Source: an uncultured Mycoplasmatota bacterium (GTDB lineage Bacteria; Bacillota_I; Bacilli_A; RF39; UBA660). Taken from it: a stretch of 64,000 nt of DNA. The stretch lies in NCBI GenBank assembly GCA_900542735.1, contig UQOS01000003.1:6821-70820 (forward strand), given 5' to 3'. Below are positions 4,694-32,608 of the stretch, in pieces. Within the stretch, counting starts at the first letter, position 1. Every line of letters begins with the position of its first letter. The position numbers and the translations under genes are program-made. The notes below the pieces were generated by a model. The model had not been told where the DNA came from. It searched no databases and saw only the letters and a program-made list of their open reading frames with translations.

Positions 4694-5683
4694 ATGGAAT
4701 TTATAGCTGAAATCAAACAAAAGGCAAAGAATAATAAAAAAAGAATTGTCCTACCAGAAACAATGGACGATAGAGTTCTAAAAGCAGCAGAAATTGTATT
4801 AAATGAAGAAATTGCTGATATTATTTTAATTGGTAATGAAAAAGAAATAAATGAAAAATCTATGAATTTAAAAAAAGCTACTATTATAGATCCAAATACT
4901 AGTAGTTTAACCCAAAATTACATAGAAAAACTAGTAAACCTTAGAAAAGATAAAGGTATGACACAAGAAGAAGCAACCAAATTACTATTAGAAAATTATA
5001 TGTATTATGCTTGTATGCTAGTTTTAGATAAAAAGGCAGATGGTGTTGTTAGTGGAGCACATCATTCAACTTCTGATACATTACGACCAGCTTTACAGAT
5101 TATCAAAACAAAACCAAATACAAAATTAGTATCTGCTTTCTTTTTAATGGATGTTCCAAATTGTAGTTATGGAGAAAATGGTGTATTTCTATTTTCTGAC
5201 TGTGGTTTGAATCAAAATCCTACTAGTAGTGAATTAGTAGATATTAGTATATCAAGTGCCAATAGTTTTAGAAATTTAGTTGGAAAAACCCCTTATGTAG
5301 CTCTACTTTCTCATTCTACAAAAGGTAGTGCTAAGCACCCAGATGTTGACAAAGTAATAAATGCAACCAAAATACTAAAAGAAAATTACCCTGACTATCA
5401 TATTGATGGAGAGCTTCAATTAGATGCCGCAATTGTGCCAGATGTAGCTTCTATAAAAGCAAAAGATAGTGAAGTAGCAGGTCATGCTAATGTATTAATC
5501 TTTCCGGATTTAGATAGTGGCAATATTGGTTATAAGTTAGTAGAAAGATTAGCTAATGCTAAAGCCTATGGACCACTTACCCAAGGAATAAATGCTCCAA
5601 TTAATGATTTATCTCGTGGTTGTAGCGTTGATGATATTGTAGGTGTTATCGCAATTACTGCTGTTCAAGCACAAAATTACTAG
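4694..5683 (+). CDS. pta: Phosphate acetyltransferase
   Basis: ~330 aa from ATG 4694 (MEFIAEIKQKA...), typical Pta length; conserved LLSHSTKGS and GPLTQG motifs. The track extension from 4619 lacks an RBS and the sequence there is not Pta-like. Confidence 0.9.
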   Translation: MEFIAEIKQKAKNNKKRIVLPETMDDRVLKAAEIVLNEEIADIILIGNEKEINEKSMNLKKATIIDPNTSSLTQNYIEKLVNLRKDKGMTQEEATKLLLENYMYYACMLVLDKKADGVVSGAHHSTSDTLRPALQIIKTKPNTKLVSAFFLMDVPNCSYGENGVFLFSDCGLNQNPTSSELVDISISSANSFRNLVGKTPYVALLSHSTKGSAKHPDVDKVINATKILKENYPDYHIDGELQLDAAIVPDVASIKAKDSEVAGHANVLIFPDLDSGNIGYKLVERLANAKAYGPLTQGINAPINDLSRGCSVDDIVGVIAITAVQAQNY

Positions 5684-5763
5684 TAATTTAAAAGATTTAT
5701 TGATATAATACATACAGAATTATTTTAGCCCTAATAAATTTGCTTAATTAAAGGAGGATTTAT

Positions 5764-6828
5764 ATGTTAGAAAGACTAGAAGTAATTGAAAAAAGATATG
5801 ATGAAATTCAAAAAGAATTATCTAATCCTGATGTTTACAGTAACATGAATAAAATGAAATCTCTATCAAAAGAAGCAAGTGACTTAGAAGAAACTGTAAA
5901 TGCTTATCATGAGTATAAAAAGATTTTATCAGGAATAGAAGATACCAAAGAAATGATAAAAGATCCTGAAATGGGTGAGTTAGCAAAAGAAGAATTAGTA
6001 AACTTGGAATCTGAGAAAACTAAATTAGAAGAAAAAATAGAAGTTTTATTAATTCCTAAAGATCCTAACGATAGTAAAAATGTTATTGTGGAAATTCGTG
6101 GAGCAGCTGGTGGAGATGAAGCCAATATCTTTGCTGGTGATTTATATAGAATGTATTCAAGATATGCTGAAAAACAAGGATTTAAAATTGAATTAATTGA
6201 TGCTGAAGAAGGCGCTTCTGGGGGATTTTCTCAAATAGAATTCATGGTAAAAGGAGAAGGCGCTTATTCAAAACTAAAATATGAAAGTGGTTCTCATCGT
6301 GTTCAAAGAGTCCCAGAAACAGAATCACAAGGAAGAATTCAAACCTCAACTGCAACAGTATTAGTAATGCCAGAAGCAGAAGATGTAAACATTGAAATCA
6401 ATCCAAGTGACTTAAGAATTGATATATATCGTTCTTCAGGTTGTGGTGGACAAGGAGTAAATACTACCGATTCAGCAGTAAGAATTACCCATTTACCAAC
6501 CAATACAGTAGTTACTTGTCAAAATGAAAGAAGTCAAATTCAAAACAAGGAGCAAGCAATGAAAGTATTAAAAGCACGTCTTTATGAACAAGAACTTCAA
6601 AAACAAGAAGAAGCATTAGGTAATGAAAGAAGAAATAAAATTGGTACTGGTGATAGAGCAGAAAAAATTAGAACATATAACTACCCACAAAACAGAGTAA
6701 CAGACCATCGCATTGGTTATACCACAAACAATTTAGATAGAATTATGAATGGTGCACTTGATGAGGTAATTGAAGCTTTAATTACCGAAGATCAAAAAAG
6801 AAAGTTATCAGTAGAAAACAATGACTAA
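5764..6828 (+). CDS. prfA: Peptide chain release factor 1
   Basis: 354 aa; GGQ motif ([23 protein letters not shown]); RF-1 family PxT-region context; RBS AAGGAGGA. Confidence 0.95.
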
Positions 6829-7054
6829 AATTTCTACAATCTGTCTAAAATGTGGTAAGGTTCAAACAGTAGAAAACATGGAAGAAATAATGAACGATTA
6901 TTATATCGTTCTAGATAAGAAAATGTTTTGCCCAAATTGTCAGAGAAAAACTGATTTTATAGCGACAAAAGATATAGAAAATCTAAAAGAAAATATAGAG
7001 AAAAATCCATCTGAGGCATTAGATAGTTATATTATAAAGTTATTAAAGAAATAG
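6821..7054 (+). CDS. Small zinc-ribbon protein (CxxC...CPNC) encoded between prfA and prmC
   Basis: 77 aa; two CxxC pairs (CLKCGK...CPNCQRK). ATGA overlap with the prfA stop suggests translational coupling within the prfA-prmC operon. Confidence 0.4.
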
Positions 7055-7063
7055 GATTATAAC

Positions 7064-7894
7064 ATGAAAGTAGAAGAATTAATTATTTATGGAAAAAAGT
7101 ACCTTCACTCTCAACACGCTAAGATGTTGTTAGCAGATTTATTACAAGTAAATCCCTTAGAACTACTAAATCATTTAGAAGAAGAAGTACAAGTAGATAT
7201 TATCAATGAATATAAAAAAAGAGTAGAAGCCTTAAAAGAAAAAAAACCAATACAATATGTAATTGGTAATGTTAATTTTTATGGAAATAAGTTTTTAGTA
7301 AACGAAAATGTTTTAATTCCAAGATTTGAAACAGAAGAATTAATAGAAAATACATTATTATATATTGATAAAATATTTCTTGATAAAAATTTAAAAGTAA
7401 TTGATTTAGGGACTGGGTCTGGCTGTATTGGTATCACTTTAAAACTTAAAAATCCATCTTTTGATGTTACTCTTTTAGATATTAGTAAAGAGGCATTAGA
7501 AGTAGCAAAACAAAATGCTAGTAGTTTAAATGCCCAAGTAAAACTATGCCAAAATGATATGCTCGAAAATCTAGAAGAAAAATACGATATTATAATTTCT
7601 AATCCACCCTATATTAAAGAAAATGAGCCAATTGAGGAAATCGTAAAAAATAATGAACCCCATTTGGCTTTATATGCTGGAATAGATGGCTTAGACTATT
7701 ATCGTAAAATCCTAAAAGAAGCAAAATATCGTGTAAATAATAGATTTTTGCTTGCTTTTGAAATAGGAGAAACTCAAAAAGATGCCATTATAGAATTAGC
7801 AAAATTAAGTTTTCCACAGGCTAAAATTGATGCTAAAAAGGATATGCAAAACCGTGATAGAATGATATTTGTTTACCAAAATGAGGCTAATTAA
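7064..7894 (+). CDS. prmC: Release factor glutamine N5-methyltransferase
   Basis: 276 aa; SAM motif (VIDLGTGSGCIG) and NPPY catalytic motif (ISNPPYI); follows prfA as in most bacteria. Confidence 0.9.
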   Translation: MKVEELIIYGKKYLHSQHAKMLLADLLQVNPLELLNHLEEEVQVDIINEYKKRVEALKEKKPIQYVIGNVNFYGNKFLVNENVLIPRFETEELIENTLLYIDKIFLDKNLKVIDLGTGSGCIGITLKLKNPSFDVTLLDISKEALEVAKQNASSLNAQVKLCQNDMLENLEEKYDIIISNPPYIKENEPIEEIVKNNEPHLALYAGIDGLDYYRKILKEAKYRVNNRFLLAFEIGETQKDAIIELAKLSFPQAKIDAKKDMQNRDRMIFVYQNEAN

Positions 7895-7900
7895 GCCTCT

Positions 7901-8833
7901 TTATTTTGTTTGAATTCCATATCTAGCCCCTTTTAAAAGATATAAAAAGTAATAAGCTTCCGTTAATAAATTATCAAAGAAGAGTGGTTCTACTATAAAA
8001 TAATACTTATTATTTAAAATACCATTAATGATAACGCGTAAGAATTTGATAAAATCTTCTACATATTGAATTGTGCTTTGATTTAATTTAAGTTGAGAAT
8101 CAGGAGTAATATTCATTTCCTTATATAAAGTCATTTGCTTCATAAATATTTTTCTAAAATTATCGGAATTGGTAAGAATAGTAGTTAAACTAGGATCACA
8201 AAGTCCAATAATAAGTTGAGAAATAGTTTTCATAGAGTCACAGTACCAATATTCATAATTAACGATAAAAGTAGGATCGGCACTGTTTTTAGCAGCAAGT
8301 CTTAATAAATCATTATAATAAAAATTAATTTCTTTAATCACAAAGGTAAAGAAAGTAGGGTAAGTATAAGAAAATAATTTATTCTCTTTTAATAAATCTA
8401 AAATTTCCTTACAAAAATCAATAAAATTTTTACTTAAAGCAATAGCATTTTCATTAATATCAGTAATTTCTGCTAGTTCTTCTTCTGTATAATTAAACTT
8501 GCTACCAGCTTCTATATTCATTTCAGCAATCGTAAGATTTGTGTTTATATCAACATTAAATAATTTCTCAGTAACTAATTCACAATTTAAAGTATAATCA
8601 GTCACAAAAGAATTACTATTTAAAATACTCTCTGGTAAATTTTTATTAGCAAGTTTAATCACTCTTTCTCCAAGTTCTTCACATCTAATTCCAAAGTCAT
8701 TCGCAATATCGATATAATACTTATTATTTTCTAAAAAAGAAAGTTGAATATTTAAACAAAATTCTCTCATAGTCCTTAAATAAAATAGATTGTCAATTAA
8801 AGATTGTATCATAAATAAAGTATCATTAATCAT
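7901..8833 (-). CDS. Hypothetical protein (possibly DUF2935-like two-repeat helical protein)
   Basis: 310-aa minus-strand ORF convergent with prmC; no catalytic motifs recognised. Confidence 0.4.
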   Translation of the reverse strand: MINDTLFMIQSLIDNLFYLRTMREFCLNIQLSFLENNKYYIDIANDFGIRCEELGERVIKLANKNLPESILNSNSFVTDYTLNCELVTEKLFNVDINTNLTIAEMNIEAGSKFNYTEEELAEITDINENAIALSKNFIDFCKEILDLLKENKLFSYTYPTFFTFVIKEINFYYNDLLRLAAKNSADPTFIVNYEYWYCDSMKTISQLIIGLCDPSLTTILTNSDNFRKIFMKQMTLYKEMNITPDSQLKLNQSTIQYVEDFIKFLRVIINGILNNKYYFIVEPLFFDNLLTEAYYFLYLLKGARYGIQTK

Positions 8834-8931
8834 TTTTTCACCTCTATCTAAATATATGTTAAAAAAAATAAAATATAATCTGTATAAGATATCAAATTAG
8901 ACCCCAATATAAAATCAGAAAAGGTGATAAA

Positions 8932-9459
8932 ATGAAGAAAATTGGGGTAATACTAGTAATAGTTTTTATTGTATTTATGATGATATCAAAAGAGGAAGAA
9001 GTAATGATTCCAAAAGAAGCAATTCGTTTTCGTGTTATTGCTAACAGTGATAGCAATGTTGACCAATTAACTAAAACCCTAGTAAGAAATGAAATTCAGG
9101 AACAATTAGCTACCGATATGAAAGAAAATAAAACTATAAAAGAAGCAAGAAAAAAAATAAACGATAATCTAACTAATTATAGTAATTTGATAGAAAAAAC
9201 TTTAAAATCTCATGAAGTTGACTATGGTTACGATATAAACTATGGTATGAATTATTTTCCTAAAAAGACCTATAAAGGAGTTAACTACCAAGAAGGCTAT
9301 TATGAATCTTTAGTGGTAACATTAGGTAGTGGTGAGGGAAAAAATTGGTGGTGTGTATTATTTCCTCCATTATGTTTACTAGAAGCAGAAGAAACTAGTC
9401 AAAAAGAAGAAGTAGAATATAAATTTTTTATAAAAGAAATTATAGATAAATATTTATAA
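8932..9459 (+). CDS. spoIIR: Stage II sporulation protein R
   Basis: Signal/TM N-terminus, then IRFRVIANSDSNVDQ and GSGEGKNWWCVLFPPLCLL. These match the SpoIIR hallmark motifs (IRLRILANSDSD; GDGANWWCVLFPPLC). Confidence 0.8.
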   Translation: MKKIGVILVIVFIVFMMISKEEEVMIPKEAIRFRVIANSDSNVDQLTKTLVRNEIQEQLATDMKENKTIKEARKKINDNLTNYSNLIEKTLKSHEVDYGYDINYGMNYFPKKTYKGVNYQEGYYESLVVTLGSGEGKNWWCVLFPPLCLLEAEETSQKEEVEYKFFIKEIIDKYL

Positions 9460-13042: not shown

Positions 13043-13137
13043 AGAAAAAATATCTTGAAAAGTATAAGAATTACTGCTATAATAAAAACGCATTTAATTA
13101 CTATGGCATACATATAACTGCCATGGCGAAGAAAAGG

Positions 13138-13159
13138 CTCTAGAATATTCTAGATATAA
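13138..13159. promoter_or_regulatory. Perfect 16-bp palindrome TCTAGAATATTCTAGA fused to -10 TATAAT upstream of rpmE; a third TCTAGA follows at 13159-13164
   Basis: Read directly; overlaps the core promoter 25 nt before the rpmE RBS; candidate repressor operator. Confidence 0.45.
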
Positions 13160-13182
13160 TCTAGATACGAAAGGAGATAATT

Positions 13183-13386
13183 ATGAAAAAGGGAATTCAT
13201 CCAGAAATGAAAGAAGCAACTGTAAAATGTGCTTGTGGAGAAACATTTAAAGTAATGTCTACAAAAGAAGAAATTCATGTAGAAGTTTGTTCTAAATGTC
13301 ATCCATTCTATACTGGAAAACAATCAAGAGCATCTAAGACTGGACGTGTAGAAAAATTCAATCAAAAATATGGTTTTGATAAGTAA
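13183..13386 (+). CDS. rpmE: 50S ribosomal protein L31 (zinc-ribbon type A)
   Basis: [22 protein letters not shown]...[12 protein letters not shown]; canonical L31 with CxxC/CxxC. Confidence 0.9.
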
Positions 13387-23040: not shown

Positions 23041-23517
23041 ATGGAAATATTTTTGAAAGATTTAAAACTAGAAAGAGTTAATTTTTTTGATGAAGAAAAG
23101 ATAAATTATATAGAAGGATTATTAGATGATGAATTAATTAAAAAGTATTTAGGCTATTTAAAAGATGGAATATCAATTAGTAAAAATATAGGGTATTTAA
23201 ATTCACATTATGTTGTAAAACGTGGTTCAAACAATGTAGGTTATCTATATCTTAGTCCACCATTTATCAAAGATAAAAGGACTTCATCAGAAATAAGATA
23301 TGCTATAGACTCATTATATAGACAAAGTGGTTTAGGTAATCTATTAGTAAAGGAAATTAGTGATTATATTCTAGAAAACGAAAATATCGATTCTCTAGTT
23401 GCCATTATTCAAAAACAGAATTTAATCTCCAAACATATAGTAGAAAATAATGGTTACATACAAGATGGAGAAGATATAGATGGTTTGATTTTTGAAAAGA
23501 GTAGTTTTAGGCGATAA
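23041..23517 (+). CDS. GNAT-family N-acetyltransferase (putative)
   Basis: 158 aa; R/QxxGxG-like acetyl-CoA loop (YRQSGLGNLLVKEI). Confidence 0.5.
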   Translation: MEIFLKDLKLERVNFFDEEKINYIEGLLDDELIKKYLGYLKDGISISKNIGYLNSHYVVKRGSNNVGYLYLSPPFIKDKRTSSEIRYAIDSLYRQSGLGNLLVKEISDYILENENIDSLVAIIQKQNLISKHIVENNGYIQDGEDIDGLIFEKSSFRR

Positions 23518-23606: not shown

Positions 23607-26096
23607 ATGGAATTATTAAAAAAGTTATTCGACCATGAATATAAAGAATTAAAAAGATTTGAAAAAATAGCAGATCAAATAGATGAATTAGATGAAAGTA
23701 TGCAAGCTTTATCTGATAAAGAATTAAAAGATAAAACGAAAGAATTTAAAGAAAGACTACAAAATGGTGAAACAGTAGATGATTTAGTAGTAGAAGCCTT
23801 TGCAGTTGCTCGTGAAGCTTGTTTCCGTGTAATTGGTGAAAAACCTTACTATGTACAGTTATTAGGTGCTTTAGCTATTCATTTTGGTAATATTGCTGAA
23901 ATGAAAACAGGTGAAGGTAAAACTTTAACTTCTGTATTACCAGCTTATTTAAATGCTTTAACTGGTGAAGGAGTACATATCATTACTGTTAATGAATACT
24001 TAGCAGACCGTGATGCACATTGGATGGGTAAAATCCATGAATTCTTAGGACTTACAGTAGGAATTAACTTAAGAGATATGACACCAAAAGAAAAACAAGA
24101 ACAATATGCTTGTGATATCTTATATTCAACTAATAATGAAATTGGGTTTGACTATTTGCGTGATAACATGGTAATTCGTAAAGAAAATCGTGTTCAAAGA
24201 CCATTTAACTATGCAATTATTGATGAGGTTGACTCAGTTTTAATTGATGAAGCACGTACACCATTAATTATTTCTGGTGGTGAAATGAAGAGTGCTAACC
24301 TTTATATGGACGCTGATAGATTTGCTAAATCATTAAAAGAAGACGAATATATTTATGATGAAAAAACTAAAAATGTATCTTTATCAGAAGAAGGAGTTAA
24401 GAAAGCTGAAAAGAAATTTGGCTTCAAGAACTTATTTGATGTTGAAAATACAGAATTAGTTCATTATATAAATCAAGCATTACGTGCTAATTATTCTATG
24501 AAAAATGACATTGATTATGTTGTTCAAGATGGAAAAGTAGTAATCGTAGATCAATTTACAGGTCGTTTAATGCCAGGTCGTGCTTATAGTGATGGTCTTC
24601 ATCAAGCAATAGAAGCAAAAGAAGGAGTACAAATTCAACAAGAAACAAAAACTTTAGCTACTATTACTTTCCAAAATTTATTCAGAATGTATAAAAAGTT
24701 ATCTGGTATGACAGGTACTGCTAAAACAGAAGAAGAAGAATTTAGAAATATTTATAATATGTATGTTATTGAAATACCTACTAATAAACCAGTTATTCGT
24801 GTTGATATGCCTGATTTAATGTATTCAACAAAAGCAGGTAAATATCGCGCTATTGTTAATGAAATAGAAGCAAGATATAAAAAAGGTCAACCAGTTTTAG
24901 TTGGTACTATCGCTATTGAAACTAGTGAGTTAATTAGTAATTTATTAAAACAGAAGCATATTCCACATGAAGTATTAAATGCAAAAAATCATGCTCGTGA
25001 AGCAGAAATTATATCTAAAATTGGTTTAGGTAAATCAGTAACTATTGCTACCAATATGGCAGGTCGTGGTACCGATATTAAATTAAGTGATGAGGTAAGA
25101 GAACTTGGTGGATTATGCGTAATTGGTACAGAAAGACATGAATCTCGTCGTATCGATAATCAGTTAAGAGGTCGTTCTGGTCGTCAAGGGGACCCTGGTT
25201 TTACACAATTCTATGTATCTATGGAAGATGACTTAATGGTACGATTTGGTACAGATAGAATTAAAATTATGATGCAGAATTTAGGATTTGATGAAAATCA
25301 AGCTATTCGTAGTAAAACATTTACGAAAGCATTATCATCAGCTCAAGCTCGTGTTGAAGGTAATAACTTTGATATTCGTAAACAATTACTTCAATATGAT
25401 GATGTTATGAACAATCAAAGAGAAATTATGTACTCAAGACGTAATGAAATATTAGATAGTGAATCTATTCATGAAACAGTATTAGATACCATCCATAATC
25501 ATATTTCAGATTTAGTAAACTCTCATCTATTCCCAGAGGGAAGATTAACAAATGATGATGTAAAAGATATAGTAGAATTTGTAAATGAAAACTTACTAAA
25601 GAAAGATATTGATAAGGAAGATGTTGATAATAGAACTCCAGATGAAATGATTAATATCATTACTGAAAAAGTAGTAGCAGAATATGAAGAAAAATTAAAA
25701 GATATTCCAGAAGAAATCAAAGATGAGTTTGAAAAAGCTATTTCACTTAATGTAATAGATCATCATTGGACAGAACACATTAATACTTTATCTCATTTAA
25801 GAGAAGGAATTTACTTAAGAGGATATGGTCAAGAAGATCCACTACGAGCTTATACAATGGAAGGCTTTGATTTATTCGACAAAATGATGCAAAGAATAGA
25901 TAACGACATCACTTTAATGTTAGTACGTTCTGAAATTAGACAAAATATTGAGAGAAAAGAAGTATCAAAAAAACAAATAACGAATGATAGTGATGAAACT
26001 ATAAAAAAACAACCTAAGAAATCAGAAAAAATTGGAAGAAATGATCCTTGTCCATGTGGATCAGGTAAGAAGTACAAACAATGTTGTGGAAAGTAG
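23607..26096 (+). CDS. secA: Preprotein translocase ATPase SecA
   Basis: 829 aa; DEAD-like motor motifs (MKTGEGKTL, DEVDSVLIDEARTPLIISG, TNMAGRGTDI) and C-terminal SEC-C zinc finger CPCGSGKKYKQCCGK. Confidence 0.97.
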   Translation: MELLKKLFDHEYKELKRFEKIADQIDELDESMQALSDKELKDKTKEFKERLQNGETVDDLVVEAFAVAREACFRVIGEKPYYVQLLGALAIHFGNIAEMKTGEGKTLTSVLPAYLNALTGEGVHIITVNEYLADRDAHWMGKIHEFLGLTVGINLRDMTPKEKQEQYACDILYSTNNEIGFDYLRDNMVIRKENRVQRPFNYAIIDEVDSVLIDEARTPLIISGGEMKSANLYMDADRFAKSLKEDEYIYDEKTKNVSLSEEGVKKAEKKFGFKNLFDVENTELVHYINQALRANYSMKNDIDYVVQDGKVVIVDQFTGRLMPGRAYSDGLHQAIEAKEGVQIQQETKTLATITFQNLFRMYKKLSGMTGTAKTEEEEFRNIYNMYVIEIPTNKPVIRVDMPDLMYSTKAGKYRAIVNEIEARYKKGQPVLVGTIAIETSELISNLLKQKHIPHEVLNAKNHAREAEIISKIGLGKSVTIATNMAGRGTDIKLSDEVRELGGLCVIGTERHESRRIDNQLRGRSGRQGDPGFTQFYVSMEDDLMVRFGTDRIKIMMQNLGFDENQAIRSKTFTKALSSAQARVEGNNFDIRKQLLQYDDVMNNQREIMYSRRNEILDSESIHETVLDTIHNHISDLVNSHLFPEGRLTNDDVKDIVEFVNENLLKKDIDKEDVDNRTPDEMINIITEKVVAEYEEKLKDIPEEIKDEFEKAISLNVIDHHWTEHINTLSHLREGIYLRGYGQEDPLRAYTMEGFDLFDKMMQRIDNDITLMLVRSEIRQNIERKEVSKKQITNDSDETIKKQPKKSEKIGRNDPCPCGSGKKYKQCCGK

Positions 26097-26097
26097 T

Positions 26098-26126
26098 AAA
26101 AGCCCAGTAATTACGGGCTTTTTTCA
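26098..26126 (+). terminator. Rho-independent terminator of secA
   Basis: AAGCCC-agtaatta-CGGGCTTTTTT immediately after the secA stop. Confidence 0.7.
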
Positions 26127-26363
26127 TGCTCCAAATACTTCGGAACATACTTTAGATACCTTTTTGGATACCTTCTGATGAGTATCTAAAAGGTATCTAG
26201 ATACCCTTTTTAGTGATAAATTCGCAATTTTTTAGTAAGATATTAAAACACAATTTTCCCTTTATTTATAAGGGTTTGCAAGCAATTTTGCTTTAAAATA
26301 ATATAAAATTGTGTCCGTTGCCAAAGTGGCTTAGAGCACAAATAAAAAAAGATAATACCTTTT

Positions 26364-26615
26364 TTAATTATCTTCCTCATCTATTGGTTTAAACAATTCT
26401 CTTATATCAATATTTAATACTTCTGCAAATTTCCATAAAGTTCCTAAACTAAATGTTTGATAATATTTTTCACTTTCAATATTCATTATGAATCCATCGC
26501 TATAATTACATAGTTCTGCAAATTTGTGTTGGGTTAGTCCTTTGGTTTTTCTTTGCTTTTTAAGGTTCGTTGCTACAAGATAGTAAACATAATTTTCATC
26601 ATTTTTATTTATCAA
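26364..26615 (-). CDS. XRE-family HTH transcriptional regulator
   Basis: 83 aa; HTH_3-like (LKKQRKTKGLTQHKFAELCNYSDGFIMNIE); divergent from the downstream membrane-protein gene. Confidence 0.6.
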   Translation of the reverse strand: MINKNDENYVYYLVATNLKKQRKTKGLTQHKFAELCNYSDGFIMNIESEKYYQTFSLGTLWKFAEVLNIDIRELFKPIDEEDN

Positions 26616-26646
26616 TATAGCATCACACCTTTCTAATAATATTTTC

Positions 26647-26684
26647 TCACTTATTCGGTGAAAATATACTCACTCATTCGGTGA
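26647..26684. promoter_or_regulatory. Two direct copies of a 15-bp dyad-containing box TCACT(T/C)ATTCGGTGA spaced 23 bp apart, just upstream of -10 TATAAT (26694-26699); candidate XRE operator
   Basis: Copy 1 at 26647-26661 and copy 2 at 26670-26684; outer TCAC/GTGA arms are palindromic. Located in the divergent promoter between the XRE gene and the 26721 membrane-protein gene. Confidence 0.45.
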
Positions 26685-26720
26685 GATGTGTGATATAATT
26701 ATAATGAAAGGAGGTAGAGC

Positions 26721-27332
26721 ATGAGCGAAAGCGTAGAGAAAAAGAATAGCAGTGGATTGGCTACTGCTGGAATGGTCTTAGGAATCATTGGTGTAGTTTT
26801 ATCTTTCATTCCAATAATAAATAATATTGCATTTTGTATAGGAATATTAGCATTAATATTTGGAATTATTGGAATTGTAAAGAAAGTAGGGAAAGGGAAG
26901 GCAATTGCTGGAATAGTTTTAGGAATTTTATCGATAGTAATAACTTTGGCAATGCAAAGCGCTGTATCTGATGCAATTGATGAAACATCAAAGGAATTAG
27001 ATAAGATTACCGGTAATAGTACAGAAGAGGTTTTAAAAACTGAGGCAAATGTTACATTAGGAGATCTACAAATATCTAAAGATGAATATGGTTTAACTGA
27101 TAGTAAGATGGTCGTTACAGTCAAAAACATTACTGACAAAAAGAAATCATATTCATTTCATATAGAAGCTGTAGATGCAAATGGAAATAGAATAGATGAA
27201 GATTATGTATATGCTAATGATTTAAGTGCCGGTCAAACTCAAAATTTTGAAATTTTTACTTATATAGAAGATTCAAAAATTGATGGGATGAAAGCTGCAA
27301 CATTTAAAATAATAGAAGCTTCAGCATATTAA
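26721..27332 (+). CDS. Membrane protein (two N-terminal TM helices, DUF4190-like, plus extracellular beta-rich C-terminal domain)
   Basis: 203 aa; Gly/Ile-rich TM hairpin, then soluble domain; RBS AAGGAGG. Confidence 0.5.
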   Translation: MSESVEKKNSSGLATAGMVLGIIGVVLSFIPIINNIAFCIGILALIFGIIGIVKKVGKGKAIAGIVLGILSIVITLAMQSAVSDAIDETSKELDKITGNSTEEVLKTEANVTLGDLQISKDEYGLTDSKMVVTVKNITDKKKSYSFHIEAVDANGNRIDEDYVYANDLSAGQTQNFEIFTYIEDSKIDGMKAATFKIIEASAY

Positions 27333-27548
27333 GGTTAAAAGATGGTTGGATAAATCATCTTTTTTAAATCTCATAAAAAGCTTGCTAAAAAATTGCGAAA
27401 AATCGTTAAAAAAGAATTTTAGATACCTTTTTAGATACCCTGAGAATAAATTCCAGGGTGCTGTCGGAAGCTCCCAAGTGCATTCAATAGCCGAAAAGAG
27501 CCACAAAATGCTATGAGAAGCTACCAAAATACCTACTATAAAAAGCCA

Positions 27549-27590
27549 TGTGGCAGTGGTAAAAAATATAAACAATGCTGTGGAAAGTAG
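27549..27590 (+). repeat. Second copy of the secA 3'-terminal SEC-C coding segment (encodes CGSGKKYKQCCGK-stop); start of tandem repeat unit A
   Basis: tgtggcagtggtaaaaaatataaacaatgctgtggaaagtag versus secA tgtggatcaggtaagaagtacaaacaatgttgtggaaagtag; differences are all synonymous. An in-frame ATG at 27513 would give a 25-aa micro-ORF MRSYQNTYYKKPCGSGKKYKQCCGK. Confidence 0.7.
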
Positions 27591-27683
27591 CATAAAATAA
27601 TGGAAAACTAATAATTATAAAAATTATAAATTGGTTCGAGTTTTATAACTCGTCCACAAAATATTAAAAATATGTAGTAAAAT

Positions 27684-27720
27684 AAAGGTGTGAACAATGA
27701 TTATATTTGTTGACACCTTT
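27684..27720. repeat. 14-bp arm imperfect palindrome AAAGGTGTGAACAA-n9-TTGTTGACACCTTT upstream of the KilA-N gene (copy A)
   Basis: Inverted repeat with one mismatch. A homologous palindrome at 29592-29624 carries a compensatory paired change (T/A to C/G), indicating a structural or dimer-site constraint. Confidence 0.55.
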
Positions 27721-27750
27721 TAAAATCTAAATAGAAAGGAGAAAAAAATA

Positions 27751-28533
27751 TTGAAAAAAGATTTAGTAACAGCAGAAATAATAGTTAAAGAAAATAAGGT
27801 GGGAATACTAAGAGTTGGAAATGTTAATTACATTTCTTTAACTGATTTAGCAAAGTATCAAAATTCAAGTGATCCATCTTTTACAGTTAAAAACTGGTTA
27901 AGAAGAATAAATACTATTGATTATATTGGACTATGGGAAGAAATTCATAATCAAGATTTTAATTTGGTCGAATTCGACCAAATTAAAACTGAATACGGTA
28001 GAAACTCATTTGCAATGTCACCAACACAATGGGTAAAAAGAACTAAAGCAATAGGAATAATTTCAAAAGGTGGGAGATATAGTATTGGAACATATGCCCA
28101 TCCAGATATTGCATTTGAATTTGCAAGTTGGCTATCTCCGGAGTTTAAATTATATTTAATAACTGAATTTGAGAGATTAAAAACTAATGAAGCTTATCAA
28201 GAAAAAATAGATTGGCAAGCAAATAGAATTTTATCTAAATTAAACTATGTGGTTCACACTGATGCAGTAAAAACCTATATTGTTCCAACACTTACAGAAG
28301 CGCAAAAGAAATTTGTTTATGCTGAAGAAGCGGATGTTTTAAATGTTGCTTTATTTGGGATGACAGCAAAAGAATGGAGAGAAAGAAATCCAAAACTTGC
28401 TGAAAATGGAAATATAAGAGATTATACTGATTTACTTCATTTAGTGATATTAAACAATCTGCAAAACACAAATGCAGAACTAATTGAAGAAAAAATACCA
28501 CAAGGTGAAAGATTAGTAAGACTTAATCATTAA
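27751..28533 (+). CDS. KilA-N domain-containing DNA-binding protein
   Basis: 260 aa; TTG start 8 nt after RBS AGGAGA; KilA-N signature region GTYAHPDIAFEFASWLSPEFKLYLITEF (compare GTWxHPxLAxEFARWLSPEF). Confidence 0.65.
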   Translation: MKKDLVTAEIIVKENKVGILRVGNVNYISLTDLAKYQNSSDPSFTVKNWLRRINTIDYIGLWEEIHNQDFNLVEFDQIKTEYGRNSFAMSPTQWVKRTKAIGIISKGGRYSIGTYAHPDIAFEFASWLSPEFKLYLITEFERLKTNEAYQEKIDWQANRILSKLNYVVHTDAVKTYIVPTLTEAQKKFVYAEEADVLNVALFGMTAKEWRERNPKLAENGNIRDYTDLLHLVILNNLQNTNAELIEEKIPQGERLVRLNH

Positions 28534-28631
28534 GCAAGAAGACAAATGAAAGTATTAAAAGATTTAGAGTTATTACAAAAACAAGTTAATGAAGAAAATA
28601 ATTTAATAACTAATTAAAAAAGTATCAGCAT

Positions 28632-28683
28632 ATTGATATGAACCCCGTTTCTACTTTGCCCAAGAAACGGGGTTCATATCAAT
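28632..28683. repeat. Perfect 21-bp inverted repeat (ATTGATATGAACCCCGTTTCT-n10-AGAAACGGGGTTCATATCAAT)
   Basis: Read directly; about 100 nt downstream of the KilA-N stop; not followed by a T-run. Confidence 0.6.
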
Positions 28684-29441
28684 TCAATATTAGAACAATT
28701 TTTTGAACCATCGTTAAAACAAATATCAATATTAATCGATAGTGGAATAATATCATGGAATAGTGTTATCGAAACAATAAGTTTAAATGATATAAATAAG
28801 GATATTAAGGATTTTAAACACCTTATATATGAAAGTTGGGAAAAATTATATGTATATAAACATATTAAATATGATTTGATTATGAGTTTTATAATTCAAA
28901 TATATTTATTTACCAAAAAGGAAATAGCAATGTTTTTAAATCAAAAATACAAAAGTGAAAATTTAAATACAATGTTTTCATGTATAAATGTGATTGAAAA
29001 AGAAGGAAAATACATAGACAAAGATATTAAAACTAAAATAGATATGTACAGAAACATTATCAATGTTTATAAACATGGAAAAAGTAAAAGCTTTGATTAG
29101 TTAAAAGAGAAAAATTGTTATGTTTTAAATTCCTGTTATGACTCGAACGATTTATCATTTGTATTTAATTTAAAATTTGTTTCATTTGAAGAACTGTATA
29201 ATACTCTAATTAATTTTATTAATGAGTTGTAATTAATATTTAATCTAATTATATGTTTGATGATATATCAAATTATGATATAATATCATTGTGAACGGAT
29301 GTGAACAATGTCCACAATATGTACACGTTAGAGAAATACTTATAGTACAGGTAATATCATAAATACAAATAATATAGATGTACCTAGTCTGATAAACAAG
29401 GAAATACGAATAATACTATAAGTATAGATAGTATTGATAAT

Positions 29442-29501
29442 ATGGGAGCATCCACTACTTGTGGCTCCGGAAAAAAATATAAACAATGTTGTGGAAAGTA
29501 A
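29442..29501 (+). repeat. Third copy of the secA SEC-C tail coding segment (MGASTTCGSGKKYKQCCGK-stop); start of tandem repeat unit B
   Basis: tgtggctccggaaaaaaatataaacaatgttgtggaaagtaa; closest to copy 2; followed by the same ~110-bp block (TTATCCACAAAATAT...AAAGGTG...palindrome) as copy 2. Confidence 0.7.
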
Positions 29502-29591
29502 GATAAAATAAGAAAAAAATCGAATTATAACTATTGATAATGAATTTAATTTTATGACTTATCCACAAAATATAAAAATATGTAGTAAAAT

Positions 29592-29624
29592 AAAGGTGCA
29601 AACAAAAAAATTGTTGGCACCTTT
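29592..29624. repeat. Palindrome copy B: AAAGGTGCAAACAA-n5-TTGTTGGCACCTTT, upstream of the RhuM remnant
   Basis: Homolog of 27684-27720 with a covarying change in both arms. Confidence 0.55.
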
Positions 29625-29647
29625 TAAATTTAAACAGGAGGTTTTTA

Positions 29648-29916
29648 ATGGAAAAACAAAAATAGATGTAAAATTCGAAAATGAAACAGTATGATTATAG
29701 CAACAGCAAATGGTAGACTTATGCGATACAACTAAACAAAATATAAGTTTTCATATTAAAAACATTTTTGATGAAGAAGAATTAGTTGAAAAATCAACTG
29801 TAAAGGAATTCTTGACAGTTCAAAAAGAAGGAAATCGAAAAGTTGAAAGAAAAGTTAAATATTACAATCTGGATATGATTATTTCTTTAGGATATAGAAT
29901 AAAATCAAGTTATTAG
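29648..29916 (+). pseudogene. Decayed N-terminal fragment of a RhuM-family (virulence/Fic-related DNA-binding) gene
   Basis: Reads MEKQK*, then in +2 frame IDVKFENETV(TGA)L(TAG)QQQMVDLCDTTKQNISFHIKNIFDEEEL...YYNLDMIISLGYRIKS. This matches the conserved RhuM N-terminus (IDVKLENETVWLTQAQM...NISLHLKNIF...YYNLDAIIAVGYRV) but carries a frameshift and two nonsense codons, and is truncated at ~70 aa. Confidence 0.6.
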
Positions 29917-29965
29917 AAAATGAAAAATGATATAAATAATTATAAAATGCCCAAGGAGGAATATT

Positions 29966-30508
29966 ATGAAAAGATGTAAGTGGTGTAATTTAAATAATCC
30001 CATTTATATAGAATATCACGATAAAGAATGGGGAGTAATGAACATAAATGATGACTATCTATTAGAAATGCTAATTCTAGAGTCTTTTCAAGCTGGGCTT
30101 TCTTGGGAATGCGTATTAAATAAAAGAGAAAGTTTTAGACAAGCTTATGATAATTTTAATATCGATAAAATATGCAATTATACTGAAAATAAAATAAAAG
30201 AATTATCTGAAAATAAGGACATTATTAGAAATAAGTTGAAGATTAAGGCAAGTATCAACAATGCCAAAATATTCAAAAGTATTCAAAAAGAGTTTGGTAG
30301 TTTTTCTAATTACTTAAAAACATTTACTAAAGATAACATAATTTATGAAACCGATAAGACAACAAACTTTTTATCTGATGATATTTCTAAAGATTTAATA
30401 AAAAGAGGTATGAAATTTGTAGGAAGTACGATTATTTATTCATATCTTCAAGCAATTGGAATCATTTATTCTCATGAAAAAGAATGTTTTCTATATAAAA
30501 ACAATTAA
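29966..30508 (+). CDS. tag: DNA-3-methyladenine glycosylase I
   Basis: 180 aa; RCKWCNLNNPIYIEYHDKEWGV and ESFQAGLSWECVLNKRESFRQAY match Tag zinc-snap and HhH motifs. Confidence 0.85.
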   Translation: MKRCKWCNLNNPIYIEYHDKEWGVMNINDDYLLEMLILESFQAGLSWECVLNKRESFRQAYDNFNIDKICNYTENKIKELSENKDIIRNKLKIKASINNAKIFKSIQKEFGSFSNYLKTFTKDNIIYETDKTTNFLSDDISKDLIKRGMKFVGSTIIYSYLQAIGIIYSHEKECFLYKNN

Positions 30509-30571
30509 AAAAGCTTGTATCTTTCAAAATATATGGTATAGTATACACCATTATGAAAAGGAGAGATACTT

Positions 30572-31006
30572 ATGATATCATGTAAAAATCTAAAAATTAC
30601 TGATGAGAATATAGAAAAATTAGAATTAGCTAGATTTGATGCTTATGGTATGAAGACAGATGATTTTGATCTTAAAAATACTTTTTCTGCTAACCAGTTA
30701 AGAAATAAAAAATATTTAGCTTTCGGAGCATATTTAGAAGATAAATTAGTAGGTGGTTGTTATGTTTCTAGTTCTCGTAATTCTCTTTATATAGAAGAAC
30801 TTTTTATAAAAAAAGATGCCAGTCAAATAGAAGTTGGTACTAATTTACTAAAATATGTATTAAAAAGAAAATCATTCATTGAAAAATACTATTGCCAAGA
30901 ATTTAATACAAGTTGTTTAGAAAATAGGGAAGAATTAAACTATATCTATCAGTCATTAGGTTATAGAAAGATAAGTCAAATAGTAATGAGTAAAAGATTT
31001 AAATAG
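30572..31006 (+). CDS. Hypothetical protein, possible GNAT-fold acetyltransferase
   Basis: 144 aa; weak GNAT-like core (LAFGAYLEDKLVGGCYV...LYIEELFIKKDASQIEVGTNLLKYV). Confidence 0.35.
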   Translation: MISCKNLKITDENIEKLELARFDAYGMKTDDFDLKNTFSANQLRNKKYLAFGAYLEDKLVGGCYVSSSRNSLYIEELFIKKDASQIEVGTNLLKYVLKRKSFIEKYYCQEFNTSCLENREELNYIYQSLGYRKISQIVMSKRFK

Positions 31007-31093
31007 ATAATAAAAGGGTAAAAGAGCTAGTTTCAAAATAATTAGTTCTTTTCATTTTACAGAAACTTATATATAATGATAGTGGTGAACTAT

Positions 31094-31510
31094 ATGAAAA
31101 CATTAACCATCAATCAACCATTTGCTACCTTAATTGTAGAAGGATTAAAAGAATATGAATTCCGTACTTGGAAAACAAATTATCGTGGTGAAATTTTAAT
31201 TCATGCTGGTAAAGGTGTAGATAAAAAAGCTATGAAAAATTATGAGTATTTAGGTTTAGAATATCCAAAAGGTTGCATAATAGGAAAAGCTACCATTACC
31301 GATTGCATAAAGATAGATGATAATGCTAGAAAAATATTAAAAGAAAAAAATAGGATTATATATTCTAATATTATAGATAATAAAGATTGGAATGGCTATG
31401 GCTTTAAATTAGAAAATGTGGAAAAACTAGAAAACATTGAAGTATGTGGAAAACTAAGTTTTTGGGAATTTGATTATCCACAAATCTGTGGAAAACGAAA
31501 AGAGGGATAA
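31094..31510 (+). CDS. ASCH-domain (PUA-like) protein
   Basis: MKTLTINQPFATLIVEGLKEYEFRTW...GEILIHAG matches the ASCH N-terminal signature (MKALSIRQPWAxLIxxGxKxxExRxW); start ATG 31094 after RBS GGTGAA. Confidence 0.6.
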   Translation: MKTLTINQPFATLIVEGLKEYEFRTWKTNYRGEILIHAGKGVDKKAMKNYEYLGLEYPKGCIIGKATITDCIKIDDNARKILKEKNRIIYSNIIDNKDWNGYGFKLENVEKLENIEVCGKLSFWEFDYPQICGKRKEG

Positions 31511-31512
31511 AT

Positions 31513-32608
31513 ATGGATATAAATGAAATGAAACGAAAATTAGAAGAAAATAAATTAGAAATTATAGATTTATGGAGGTCACTTTGACATCTCTTCTAAG
31601 CTTCGAGAATTAAAAGAAAAAGAAGAAGAAATGCTAAAGCCAAACTTTTGGGACGACAAAGAAAAAGCAGACTTGACATTAAAAGACATTCAAGAATTAA
31701 AAAACTTAACACAAGATATTAAAAAATTAAAAGAAGATACTGAAAATAATCTAGAATTAATTGAACTCTTATTGGTTGAAAAAGATGATGAGTTACTACA
31801 AAATTTAGAATTAGACATAAAAAATGAGACCAAACAACTAGAAAAACTATCGGTATTACTCCTTTTAAATGGACCTTATGATAAAAATAACTGTACTTTA
31901 GAAATCCATTCTGGAGCAGGTGGAACAGAAGCTTGTGATTGGGCAAATATGTTATATAGAATGTATTTAAGATATTGTGAGAAAAAAGGTTATAAAGTAG
32001 AAGTGTTAGATTATCAAGAAGGAGAAGAAGTAGGAATTAAAAGTGTTACGATTGAAATTAAAGGATTAAATGCTTATGGATACCTAAAAGGAGAAAAAGG
32101 TGTCCATCGTTTAGTAAGACTTTCACCATTTGATGCAGCTAATAAAAGACATACTTCTTTTGCATCTATTGATATTATTCCAGAATTTGATAATACTATT
32201 AATATAGACATCAACGAAAAAGATTTAAAAATAGATGTTTATCGTTCAAGTGGTAAAGGTGGACAAGGAGTAAATACTACCGATTCAGCAGTAAGAATTA
32301 CCCATTTACCAACCAAAACAGTAGTAACCTGTCAAAATGAAAGAAGCCAAATTCAAAATAAAGAGACAGCTATGAAAATGTTAAAAGCAAAACTCTATGT
32401 AATAGAACAGGAAAAGAAAAATCAAGAGTTAAATGCCATTAAAGGAAACTATCAAAATATTGAATTTGGTTCTCAAATAAGAAGTTATGTAATGCACCCA
32501 TATTCTATGGTAAAAGATCATCGTACTAATACAGAAACTAGTAATGTTTCTAAAGTATTAGATGGTGATATAGATTTATTTATAGAATCATATTTGAAAG
32601 GAGTCTAA
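31513..32608 (+). CDS. prfB: Peptide chain release factor 2, expressed via programmed +1 ribosomal frameshift (join 31513..31584, 31586..32608)
   Basis: Frame 0 is MDINEMKRKLEENKLEIIDLWRSL then TGA at 31585-31587; the shifty site CTT TGA C is preceded by internal SD GGAGGT (31574-31579). The +1 frame continues DISSKLRELKEKEEEMLKPNFWDD... into the track ORF 31631-32608. SPF tripeptide and GGQ motifs ([24 protein letters not shown]) present. Confidence 0.9.
31574..31588 (+). promoter_or_regulatory. prfB autoregulatory +1 frameshift site (GGAGGT-cac-CTT TGA C)
   Basis: Matches the canonical RF2 recoding cassette: SD-like element 3 nt before CUU UGA C. Confidence 0.85.

Follow-up and report, generated by a model that had tools for sequence, protein, structure and literature searches.

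The stretch analysed here is a window of 64,000 nt from a contig of an uncultured Mycoplasmatota bacterium (UQOS01000003.1), in which the genes secA and prfB are set apart by 5,416 nt (secA stop at 26096, prfB start at 31513). The coding tail of secA, CGSGKKYKQCCGK-stop, which ends the SEC-C zinc-finger motif of the protein, occurs three times in this 64-kb window, on each occasion on the + strand: once as the end of secA itself (tail 1), and twice further downstream (tails 2 and 3; Table 1). A degenerate pattern for the tail, TGYGGNNNNGGNAARAARTAYAARCARTGYTGYGGNAAR, has exactly three matches in the window, beginning at 26055, 27549 and 29460, and none in 100 shuffles; the same repeats were also recovered as family D1 in a repeat scan. 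All codon differences among the three tails are synonymous. The two internal tails each open a conserved block, and these blocks, which are approximately 77–79 % identical over some 180 nt, stand before a KilA-N gene and a RhuM remnant, respectively. No integrase homologue is present in the whole window (tblastn with three integrase queries, E ≤ 1). In each of these respects an earlier account made from the letters of the DNA alone, hereafter the sequence-only reading, is borne out: it had described three copies of the tail at these positions, with the same codons and only synonymous differences, a separation of about 5.4 kb, blocks in front of KilA-N and RhuM (now confirmed by alignment and Pfam), and the lack of an integrase in the window.

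Table 1. Features of the secA–prfB interval, in order along the window
Feature	Position	Strand	Description
secA	23607..26096	+	829 aa, target gene; all SecA Pfam domains including SEC-C
Tail 1	26055-26096	+	Working secA end CGSGKKYKQCCGK-stop, attL-type junction; codons GGA TCA GGT AAG AAG TAC
Hairpin and U-run	26098..26127	+	Directly 3′ of the secA stop; −10.3 kcal/mol, z −2.8
TAGATACC repeat cluster	26151..26206	direct and inverted	Left end of module 1 (repeat families D16, D19, I3)
XRE-type HTH regulator, 83 aa	26364..26615	-	Pfam HTH_3 6.5e-09; PADLOC HTH/control-protein models
Membrane protein, 203 aa	26721..27332	+	Weak DUF4190 and FxLYD matches
Right arm of module 1	27418..27548	+	Two TAGATACC repeats and ~110 nt running into tail 2
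Tail 2	27549-27590	+	Internal; junction of modules 1 and 2
Conserved block, copy 1	27591..27750	+	TCGTCCACA at 27650-27658; hairpin 27684-27720, −15.3 kcal/mol, z −5.0
KilA-N protein, 260 aa	27751..28533	+	Pfam KilA-N 6.6e-19; PADLOC PDC-S22 5.1e-111, full length
Perfect 21-bp inverted repeat (I10)	28632..28683		After the KilA-N gene; −32.4 kcal/mol, z −8.8
Decayed stretch	28700..29280		Position of integrase and cargo in intact relatives
Integrase-1-type right arm	29281..29459	+	Paired TGTGAACA/TGTCCACA repeats 29291-29328, then ATAATAC-type repeats into tail 3
Tail 3	29460-29501	+	Internal; junction of modules 2 and 3
Conserved block, copy 2	29502..29648	+	TTATCCACA at 29559-29567; hairpin 29592-29624, −14.4 kcal/mol, z −4.9
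RhuM pseudogene	29649..29916	+	N-terminal part only, stop-interrupted; module 3, starting 29502
Tag (3-methyladenine glycosylase), GNAT and ASCH genes	29966..31510	+	Pfam; right of the variable array
prfB	31513..32608	+	Right-hand anchor gene; PCRF and RF-1 domains

With regard to related strains, a lookup of the exact SecA protein returned ten long human-gut metagenome contigs, and a lookup of the Tag protein ten more; comparison loci are given below as L numbers, and decayed tails and those with an Asn variant were included through fuzzy matching and reading of the sequences. Among loci with an identical SecA protein the number of tails ranges from one to four, and at least nine different gene sets lie between secA and Tag amongst strains of the same species. 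The cassettes found there comprise an XRE regulator with a membrane protein (the window, L011 and L012), an HTH_3 protein with a 202-aa SAV1803-domain protein, a 139-aa open reading frame (ORF), a 184-aa ORF with a methyltransferase, an AP-endonuclease-like protein with a 194-aa ORF, a histidyl-tRNA synthetase (HisRS) scoring above the hisS cutoff, a DpnII-type restriction-modification pair, KilA-N, and RhuM remnants. The tails, or points within them, are where homology between strains sets in or breaks off: that of L005 to the window begins inside tail 2 (window 27557, L005 14728), that of L001 and L004 begins at tail 3 (window 29458, L001 13599), and the methyltransferase cassette of L004 (13919-15440), which is 97.8 % identical to that of L002 (13176-14695), starts exactly at a tail. 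The KilA-N unit is found after module 1 in the window, after a methyltransferase cassette in L005, and directly after secA in L021, where a tail of the tail 2 type, together with its block, forms the actual end of secA. Presence and absence of cassettes thus vary from strain to strain with breakpoints at the repeats, and all tail copies are in direct orientation and always between secA and prfB.

A tyrosine integrase, which is lacking beside secA in the window, directly follows the gene in two strains of the same species, L010 and L014. This enzyme (integrase 1; 435 aa) has Phage_int_SAM_3 and Phage_integrase domains according to Pfam, with some homologues also carrying Arm-DNA-bind_4, and its gene lies approximately 190 nt beyond the stop codon of secA. 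Between L010 and L014, identity is 97 % through the tail and the integrase, past which point the cargo differs; the right end of the L014 element joins sequence equivalent to window position 29660. More than 1,500 homologues of integrase 1 exist, and in a scan of one genome per species that yielded 40 loci, all of those with upstream DNA (approximately 32) have the integrase 200–250 nt after secA, even though their SecA proteins are only 42–77 % identical to that of the window. A second, distal tail is found downstream of the integrase at 4.8 kb in L048, 10.6 kb in L056 and 9.9 kb in L058, and L101 likewise has a tail at secA and another distal to it. Both L056 and L058 encode an HTH_17 excisionase-like protein, a second integrase and a Mob_Pre relaxase, gene content that marks them as integrative mobilizable elements (IMEs), and L107 is similar to L058 in these features. 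As a separate observation, the integrases of L024 (4949-6253) and L010 (12680-13987) are 100 % identical in protein, and the SecA of L024 is 64 % identical to that of the window; this suggests, at the level of sequence, a very recent transfer across species, unless it is an assembly artefact.

A second lineage, integrase 2, is 43 % identical to integrase 1 and follows tail, block and KilA-N or RhuM in at least 13 metagenome contigs. The arrangement is illustrated by L101, which runs from secA through tail, block, KilA-N, integrase 2 (with a reading frame that looks interrupted) and cargo including a methionyl-tRNA synthetase (MetRS)-like gene, to a right arm with paired TTTAGCTAAG repeats, the second tail and the next block. 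The closest phage integrase is only 34 % identical.

The working end of secA itself displays a conspicuous pattern of variation. Across 18 secA genes of the species, the last 90 nt contain 16 variable sites, compared with approximately 2.3 per 90 nt elsewhere, and all 16 fall within the last 49 nt, every one of them synonymous; the mean pairwise identity is 91.3 % for the tail vs 99.4 % for the bulk of the gene. As the loci with exact SecA identity were chosen for an identical protein, it is the concentration of these changes that is informative, and not their synonymy. The window conforms to this, with tail 1 codons unlike those of most strains of the species and a remaining secA that is 99.4 % identical. 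SecA is full length in every locus compared, and the 42 distinct variants of the working tail across all loci each encode an intact motif. The same tail, with the codons GGC TCA GGG, is common to integrase-1 elements of the two large arm subfamilies in at least 13 host species, which possess very different SecA sequences and differ in the codons just upstream of it; the same tail in so many hosts indicates that the tail travels with the element. An element of this kind must encode a working protein end, from which follow both the synonymous-only hypervariability and the peptide-preserving nature of the older tails. A hairpin with a U-run stands directly behind the secA stop in the window, and, from its position, appears to be a terminator supplied by module 1; other classes of cassette have a different hairpin at the same place (e.g. 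L001, −13 kcal/mol).

Further support comes from the arms of these elements. In the arms that separate secA from integrase 1, the motif TG[TA]CCAC[AG] has a density of 18.5 per kb, compared with 0.013 per kb in the remainder of these loci, and in right arms a pair of copies of this type stands ahead of ATAATAC-type repeats. The sequence of the pair varies between elements (TGTCCACA, TGTGCACA, TGTTTGCA, TGTTCACA and TGTCGCCA being examples), and L056 and L058 each have one and the same variant in both arms, as would be expected of sites bound by the integrase that each element itself encodes; an Arm-DNA-binding domain is present in many of these integrases. The window blocks contain TCGTCCACA and TTATCCACA as single, looser copies of the arm motif. 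The sequence-only reading had likened these motifs to DnaA boxes, for which an integrase-element arm motif, roughly 1,400-fold enriched in arms, is the better interpretation.

The block is similarly tied to the tails. Its most conserved 21-mer is found in 60 metagenome contigs, in 61 instances, of which approximately 57 have a tail-like sequence, in some cases decayed or truncated, within about 110 nt upstream; the remainder are mostly cut by a contig end, with one (L097) being without a tail. In the metagenome contigs it is followed by KilA-N (294 aa) or full-length RhuM (335–350 aa). Within it lies a palindrome with 14-nt arms, 13 of the 14 positions pairing, in which a single compensatory change (T-A to C-G) distinguishes the window copies. 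Judged from these associations, the block of some 170 nt is the conserved left arm of one element family, in intact members of which KilA-N or RhuM and then integrase 2 come after it, and its hairpin and U-run lie where every class of element places a terminator after the secA stop. An interpretation of the block as the native flank or terminator of secA alone was rejected, there being two diverged tandem copies and an integrase after the unit in many loci. No match to the block was found among viral contigs, and nothing therefore suggests a phage origin. A search of 25900-31700 against Rfam (E ≤ 1) returned chance-level matches only, so the block does not belong to a known RNA family, and a promoter and terminator scan showed no enrichment, although its loop and T-run rules missed obvious hairpins.

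The internal tails have the appearance of relics. Their 46 distinct variants comprise 29 that are intact and 17 that are damaged by non-synonymous changes, stops or truncations, and they display 154 synonymous and 26 non-synonymous codon differences, compared with 84 % non-synonymous for random single changes; since the sequences are related to one another, a binomial P value is only indicative here. All six Ser codons are used at the Ser position, a part of the tail that played no role in finding the sequences. The internal tails thus look like former ends of secA that slowly decayed once internal, rather than like genes. The RhuM-linked tail illustrates such decay, as the counterpart of tail 3 in L001, L015, L017 and L019 is frameshifted, with a 1-nt deletion in addition to a G>A change.

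The point at which recombination falls within the tail is less simple. Positions 3–30 are linked to neither flank, and only those from 31 onward follow the downstream arm; a single crossover point was sought from this linkage, and the data fit none. A tail in L072 (~890-930, reverse-complemented) has the same neighbours as window tail 2, with flanks approximately 97 % identical, but differs from it at 5 of 42 positions and is the usual secA tail of the species, which, on comparison of the sequences, would point to exchange between tails through gene conversion or re-integration. The unlinked interior could possibly arise from two integrase lineages that cut at opposite TGTGG edges, from repeated excision and re-integration, or from gene conversion. 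As a prediction, the crossover of integrase 1 may lie at the 5′ edge of the tail near CCATGTGG, and that of integrase 2 near the second TGTGG.

Taken as a whole, the extra tails are very probably attachment-site junctions, left by site-specific integration into the last 45 nt or so of secA. A tyrosine integrase would recombine a tail borne by the element with that of the chromosome; the element would thereby supply a new end of secA, stop codon and terminator hairpin included, with the displaced older tail remaining at its far end. Repeated integrations, deletions and exchanges would then generate an array of modules separated by tails, and the window would represent three such modules without integrases, namely XRE with a membrane protein, KilA-N, and the RhuM remnant. 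The sequence-only reading had proposed elements of this kind, targeting the 3′ end of secA, bringing a replacement tail and leaving older tails behind, and every comparative test run supports this: cassettes vary between strains with breakpoints at the tails, and a recombinase was located in related strains. The two cases that it had named against itself both fail, as tail numbers of one to four are at odds with three copies fixed in relatives, and the tails are not the ends of longer SEC-C genes.

Several considerations weigh against this explanation. The comparison loci are almost all metagenome assemblies or metagenome-assembled genomes (MAGs), in which short shared repeats can cause misjoins, and retrieval by exact SecA identity leaves out, by its design, any secA variant with a non-synonymous change. 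Neither a circular form nor an empty site was observed, and a search for a distal tail of the L014 integrase element found none. A single fixed crossover does not predict a tail interior that is unlinked to both flanks. The left and right arms of module 2 derive from different element families, and extra deletions must therefore be assumed. Finally, the window holds no integrase, excisionase or relaxase, and nothing shows that its modules still move.

It is also conceivable, albeit with considerable doubt, that the secA tail acts as a shared platform, at which integrase-less cassettes of 0.7–2 kb, with conserved arms on the left and right, are routinely captured, shuffled and exchanged among strains and species by the two integrase lineages acting in trans; two lineages cutting at opposite edges of the tail may explain why its interior is linked to neither flank. 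Far less probable is an origin of the copies from the 3′ region of secA by homologous recombination or duplication of the ordinary kind, be it through ancient duplications or imports by transformation, with no dedicated recombinase. The lack of a unique exchange point within the tail is in keeping with this, as are interiors that differ in a conversion-like manner despite flanks that are ~97 % identical, and an internal copy in L002 that extends over ~92 nt of secA-like sequence (13127-13216, 76 % identical). Two tyrosine integrase lineages at exactly this site in dozens of species, repeated and element-specific arm motifs, breakpoints confined to ~45 nt whilst upstream secA is 99.4 % identical, and copies that are all direct and always between secA and prfB speak against it; homologous recombination may nonetheless contribute to the shuffling of tail interiors.

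The sequence-only reading had itself raised the prospect that the internal tails are small genes, encoding free SEC-C zinc-binding peptides of 19–25 aa that might act on SecA, ribosomes or zinc balance. The ORFs as such stand, as in-frame ATGs at both internal copies of the window give products of 25 and 19 aa, and the former matches the SEC-C motif (PF02810) above the Pfam cutoff (27.8 vs 20.4 bits). In addition, the peptide is kept far better in internal tails than under neutral drift, and ATAATATG occurs a few codons upstream of the tail in several integrase-type right arms. The function, however, is not supported: neither ATG is preceded by a Shine-Dalgarno sequence, the upstream sequence is wholly different between arm classes, and many copies have no in-frame start or have a stop (e.g. 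L048). Homology begins only at the second cysteine (SecA CPCGSG vs internal xCGSG), leaving three of the four zinc ligands; an independent microprotein would require both a conserved start and the full set of four ligands, and neither is found. Moreover, 17 of the 46 internal variants are damaged, the RhuM-linked tail is frameshifted in four strains, and in L021, L103 and L119 such a tail and block form the end of secA itself, so that peptides of this sort are very improbable. Equally improbable is a cis-regulatory leader, in which a SEC-C leader peptide and the hairpin with U-run would attenuate transcription of KilA-N or RhuM, zinc or the state of translation perhaps being the signal: whilst the order of micro-ORF, ~95 nt, stable hairpin with U-run, ribosome-binding site and gene, the one compensatory hairpin pair between copies and the high conservation of the block across 60 contigs all suit it, the supposed leader ORF has no conserved start, no Rfam family matches, the stem has a conserved mismatch (G-G or A-G) that suits a palindrome bound by protein, or an ordinary terminator, no less well, other variants break pairs uncompensated, and the hairpin is more simply a terminator or insulator placed after the secA stop by every class of element.

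Returning to integration at the secA tail, the individual modules of the window are consistent with derivatives of such elements. The TAGATACC repeat of module 1, five of whose 11 matches in the window fall at 26151-26206 and 27420-27439, is also found in cassette arms of other strains and species. The right arm of module 1 is 82 % identical to that upstream of the distal tail in the integrase-bearing element of L101, and arms of this type precede tails in L004, L020, L065, L074, L112, L120 and L123. For the membrane protein, the FxLYD_dom match scores 29.8 bits against a cutoff of 23, and that to DUF4190 only 26.4 bits, below the Pfam cutoff of 35. Between the divergent XRE and membrane-protein genes are two tandem 23-nt repeats, AATATTTTCTCACTTATTCGGTG and AAAATATACTCACTCATTCGGTG (26638-26683; family D17), which, from this placement, are probably the operator of the XRE regulator.

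The KilA-N protein of module 2 matches PDC-S22, a family regarded as a candidate for anti-phage defence. Relatives that are intact have an integrase gene approximately 180 nt beyond KilA-N, and homology of the window to L101 stops at about 28634, where integrase 2 comes next in the latter; the perfect inverted repeat at this place is likely, from its structure, to be a terminator. No integrase remnant was detected by tblastn in 28700-29280, the only ORF of which (28876-29100) has no Pfam match, and the equivalent stretch is deleted in L021. The remainder of the module, 29281-29459, can be aligned to the arms that precede the distal tails of L048, L056, L058 and further loci, and contains the sole exact match to TG[TA]CCAC[AG] in the whole window, at 29309. 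From this composition, module 2 would be what deletion has left of one former element at the least, and probably of two. In module 3, the RhuM remnant (29710-29916) corresponds to profile positions 1–39 of 252 in Pfam Virulence_RhuM (2.8e-12). The right end of this module is undefinable because the sequence from there to prfB is common to all strains, with the Tag, GNAT and ASCH genes being conserved across L001–L023, all of them strains of the same species.

In terms of known classes of element, the window has three direct tails with a regenerated gene end, but no module of integrase with relaxase or oriT such as defines an IME. Modules 26097-27548 and 27591-29459 lie between tails and have recognisable arms without integrase or relaxase, as do cis-mobilizable elements (CIMEs). 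With no integrase in the window, its three modules are thus decayed, att-flanked remnants of a CIME-like kind, any movement of which would at best depend on an integrase provided in trans. That identical cassettes have different neighbours from strain to strain is indirect evidence that related, integrase-encoding elements may mobilise such modules.

The cargo at the secA site of other strains adds a number of further observations. In L002 (13127-13216), as well as in L005, L006, L007, L009 and L016, the extended, secA-like internal copy noted above keeps both CxC cysteines (…ICGNELCSCGSGKKYKQCCGK) and is carried along with the 139-aa cassette; judged by its sequence, this copy resembles the terminus of secA from another species. 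Extra aminoacyl-tRNA synthetase cassettes occur in L004 (15985-17262), L020 (1389-2666) and L101 (6550-8181, reverse-complemented), with HisRS passing the hisS equivalog cutoff and the MetRS-like protein of L101 (543 aa) being identified from an N-terminal motif only. Spare synthetases of this mobile sort could confer resistance or act against toxins. In the L014 element the sole cargo, encoded at 5602-9336, is a protein of 1,244 aa with a match to PD-Lambda-4_A (7e-191), and L022 (360-1978) encodes a type II methyltransferase with a DpnII-like endonuclease. Together with the PDC-S22-like KilA-N protein, these matches point to a defence-rich cargo at the site.

The flanks of the array are not without variation of their own. 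A GNAT gene (23041-23517) lies between hpf and secA in the window and most strains and is absent from L001, L003 and L010, constituting a second presence/absence polymorphism, on the opposite side of secA. At the other edge, just before prfB, the end of the ASCH gene contains TATCCACAAATCTGTGGAAA (31475-31494, + strand; repeat family D2), in which 16 of 20 positions agree with the core of the tail, the rough chance expectation being ~0.06. On this resemblance it could be a very old relic tail at the right edge of the whole island, and in other strains a 735-nt HAD gene is inserted exactly at this position. The adjoining prfB has a programmed +1 frameshift, with a 24-codon ORF0 (31513-31587) that ends CTT TGA C and GGAGG a few nt upstream.

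Comparable arrangements are known from other bacteria. Elements related to ICESt1 and ICESt3 reside at the 3′ end of fda. The tandem accretion of ICEs (integrative and conjugative elements) and IMEs with CIMEs, for instance amongst those related to ICESt1/ICESt3 in Streptococcus thermophilus, has been reviewed (PMC5704250, citing Pavlovic 2004 and Bellanger 2011), in a three-step scheme whereby elements that lose integration and transfer genes, and keep their att sites, stay in tandem with newer arrivals. The secA zinc-finger tail is not mentioned as a target in that review (PMC5704250). The secA site resembles such accretion in its tyrosine integrase, its use of the 3′ end of a housekeeping protein gene, its direct repeats that include the gene end, and the existence of true IMEs amongst relatives of the window locus (L058, with integrase, HTH_17 and Mob_Pre relaxase). 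It differs in that the site is common to two integrase lineages, many of the modules are tiny, at 0.7–2 kb and one or two genes, the loci showed no conjugation module, and no single crossover position fits.

In staphylococci, SCCmec and composite SCC (staphylococcal cassette chromosome) islands occupy the 3′ end of rlmH (orfX) by means of large serine recombinases (Ccr), with some pseudo-SCC elements lacking a recombinase. Arrays delimited by direct repeats that hold the last codons of a conserved gene, units without a recombinase, and strong variation between strains are common to both systems; the enzymes are not, with tyrosine integrases of the Phage_int_SAM_3 and Phage_integrase type found at secA in place of Ccr. 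Tandem genomic islands at tRNA and tmRNA genes, such as the ssrA islands of Dehalococcoides (PMC3146451), similarly regenerate the 3′ end of the target and leave the old end as a direct repeat. Unlike these, the secA target is protein-coding, with a regenerated end that is constrained at the peptide level and consequently varies only synonymously, and both the host clade and the integrase lineage are different. Integrons, lastly, share with the secA site small cassettes arrayed one after another, each with one or two genes, beside a tyrosine recombinase gene in some strains, and of varying order; the repeat at secA, however, is a coding tail with long, family-specific arms and not an attC hairpin, and the cassettes carry their own promoters, regulators and terminators. 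An integron-type integrase was rejected, with NCBIfam integron-integrase models scoring 60 bits against a cutoff of 265 and 35 against 435, as were attC sites, the repeats being coding tails and not attC-like imperfect palindromes.

No report of secA as an attachment site was found in the literature searched, the coverage of which was incomplete, such that this is absence of evidence only; one apparent match concerned SecA2 as cargo and not the target site. The secA locus is, then, a known mechanism, namely 3′-end integration with tandem accretion, at a target for which no report was found, and presents a new insertion hotspot with two dedicated integrase lineages of which no description was found. 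Synonymous-only hypervariability in the last 49 nt of an essential gene, alongside peptide-preserving relic tails, provides a clean signature, and the tails are usable as markers for delimiting islands in MAGs. The integrases are, in turn, candidates for site-specific genome engineering tools in these organisms. The hosts belong to a large, mostly uncultured group of gut Bacilli, whose MAGs are labelled Bacilli, Tenericutes, Mollicutes or Erysipelotrichaceae, and for which the site is a source of accessory genes, including PD-Lambda-4-like proteins, PDC-S22-like KilA-N, a DpnII-type pair, and extra HisRS and MetRS-like genes. The site is of moderate interest, as a clear case that is widespread in an understudied clade, with defence-rich cargo. 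Should the tail prove to be a shared platform, it would amount to an integron-like cassette system fixed to the end of an essential gene's coding sequence, supplying defence genes and spare aminoacyl-tRNA synthetases to gut Bacilli with small genomes.

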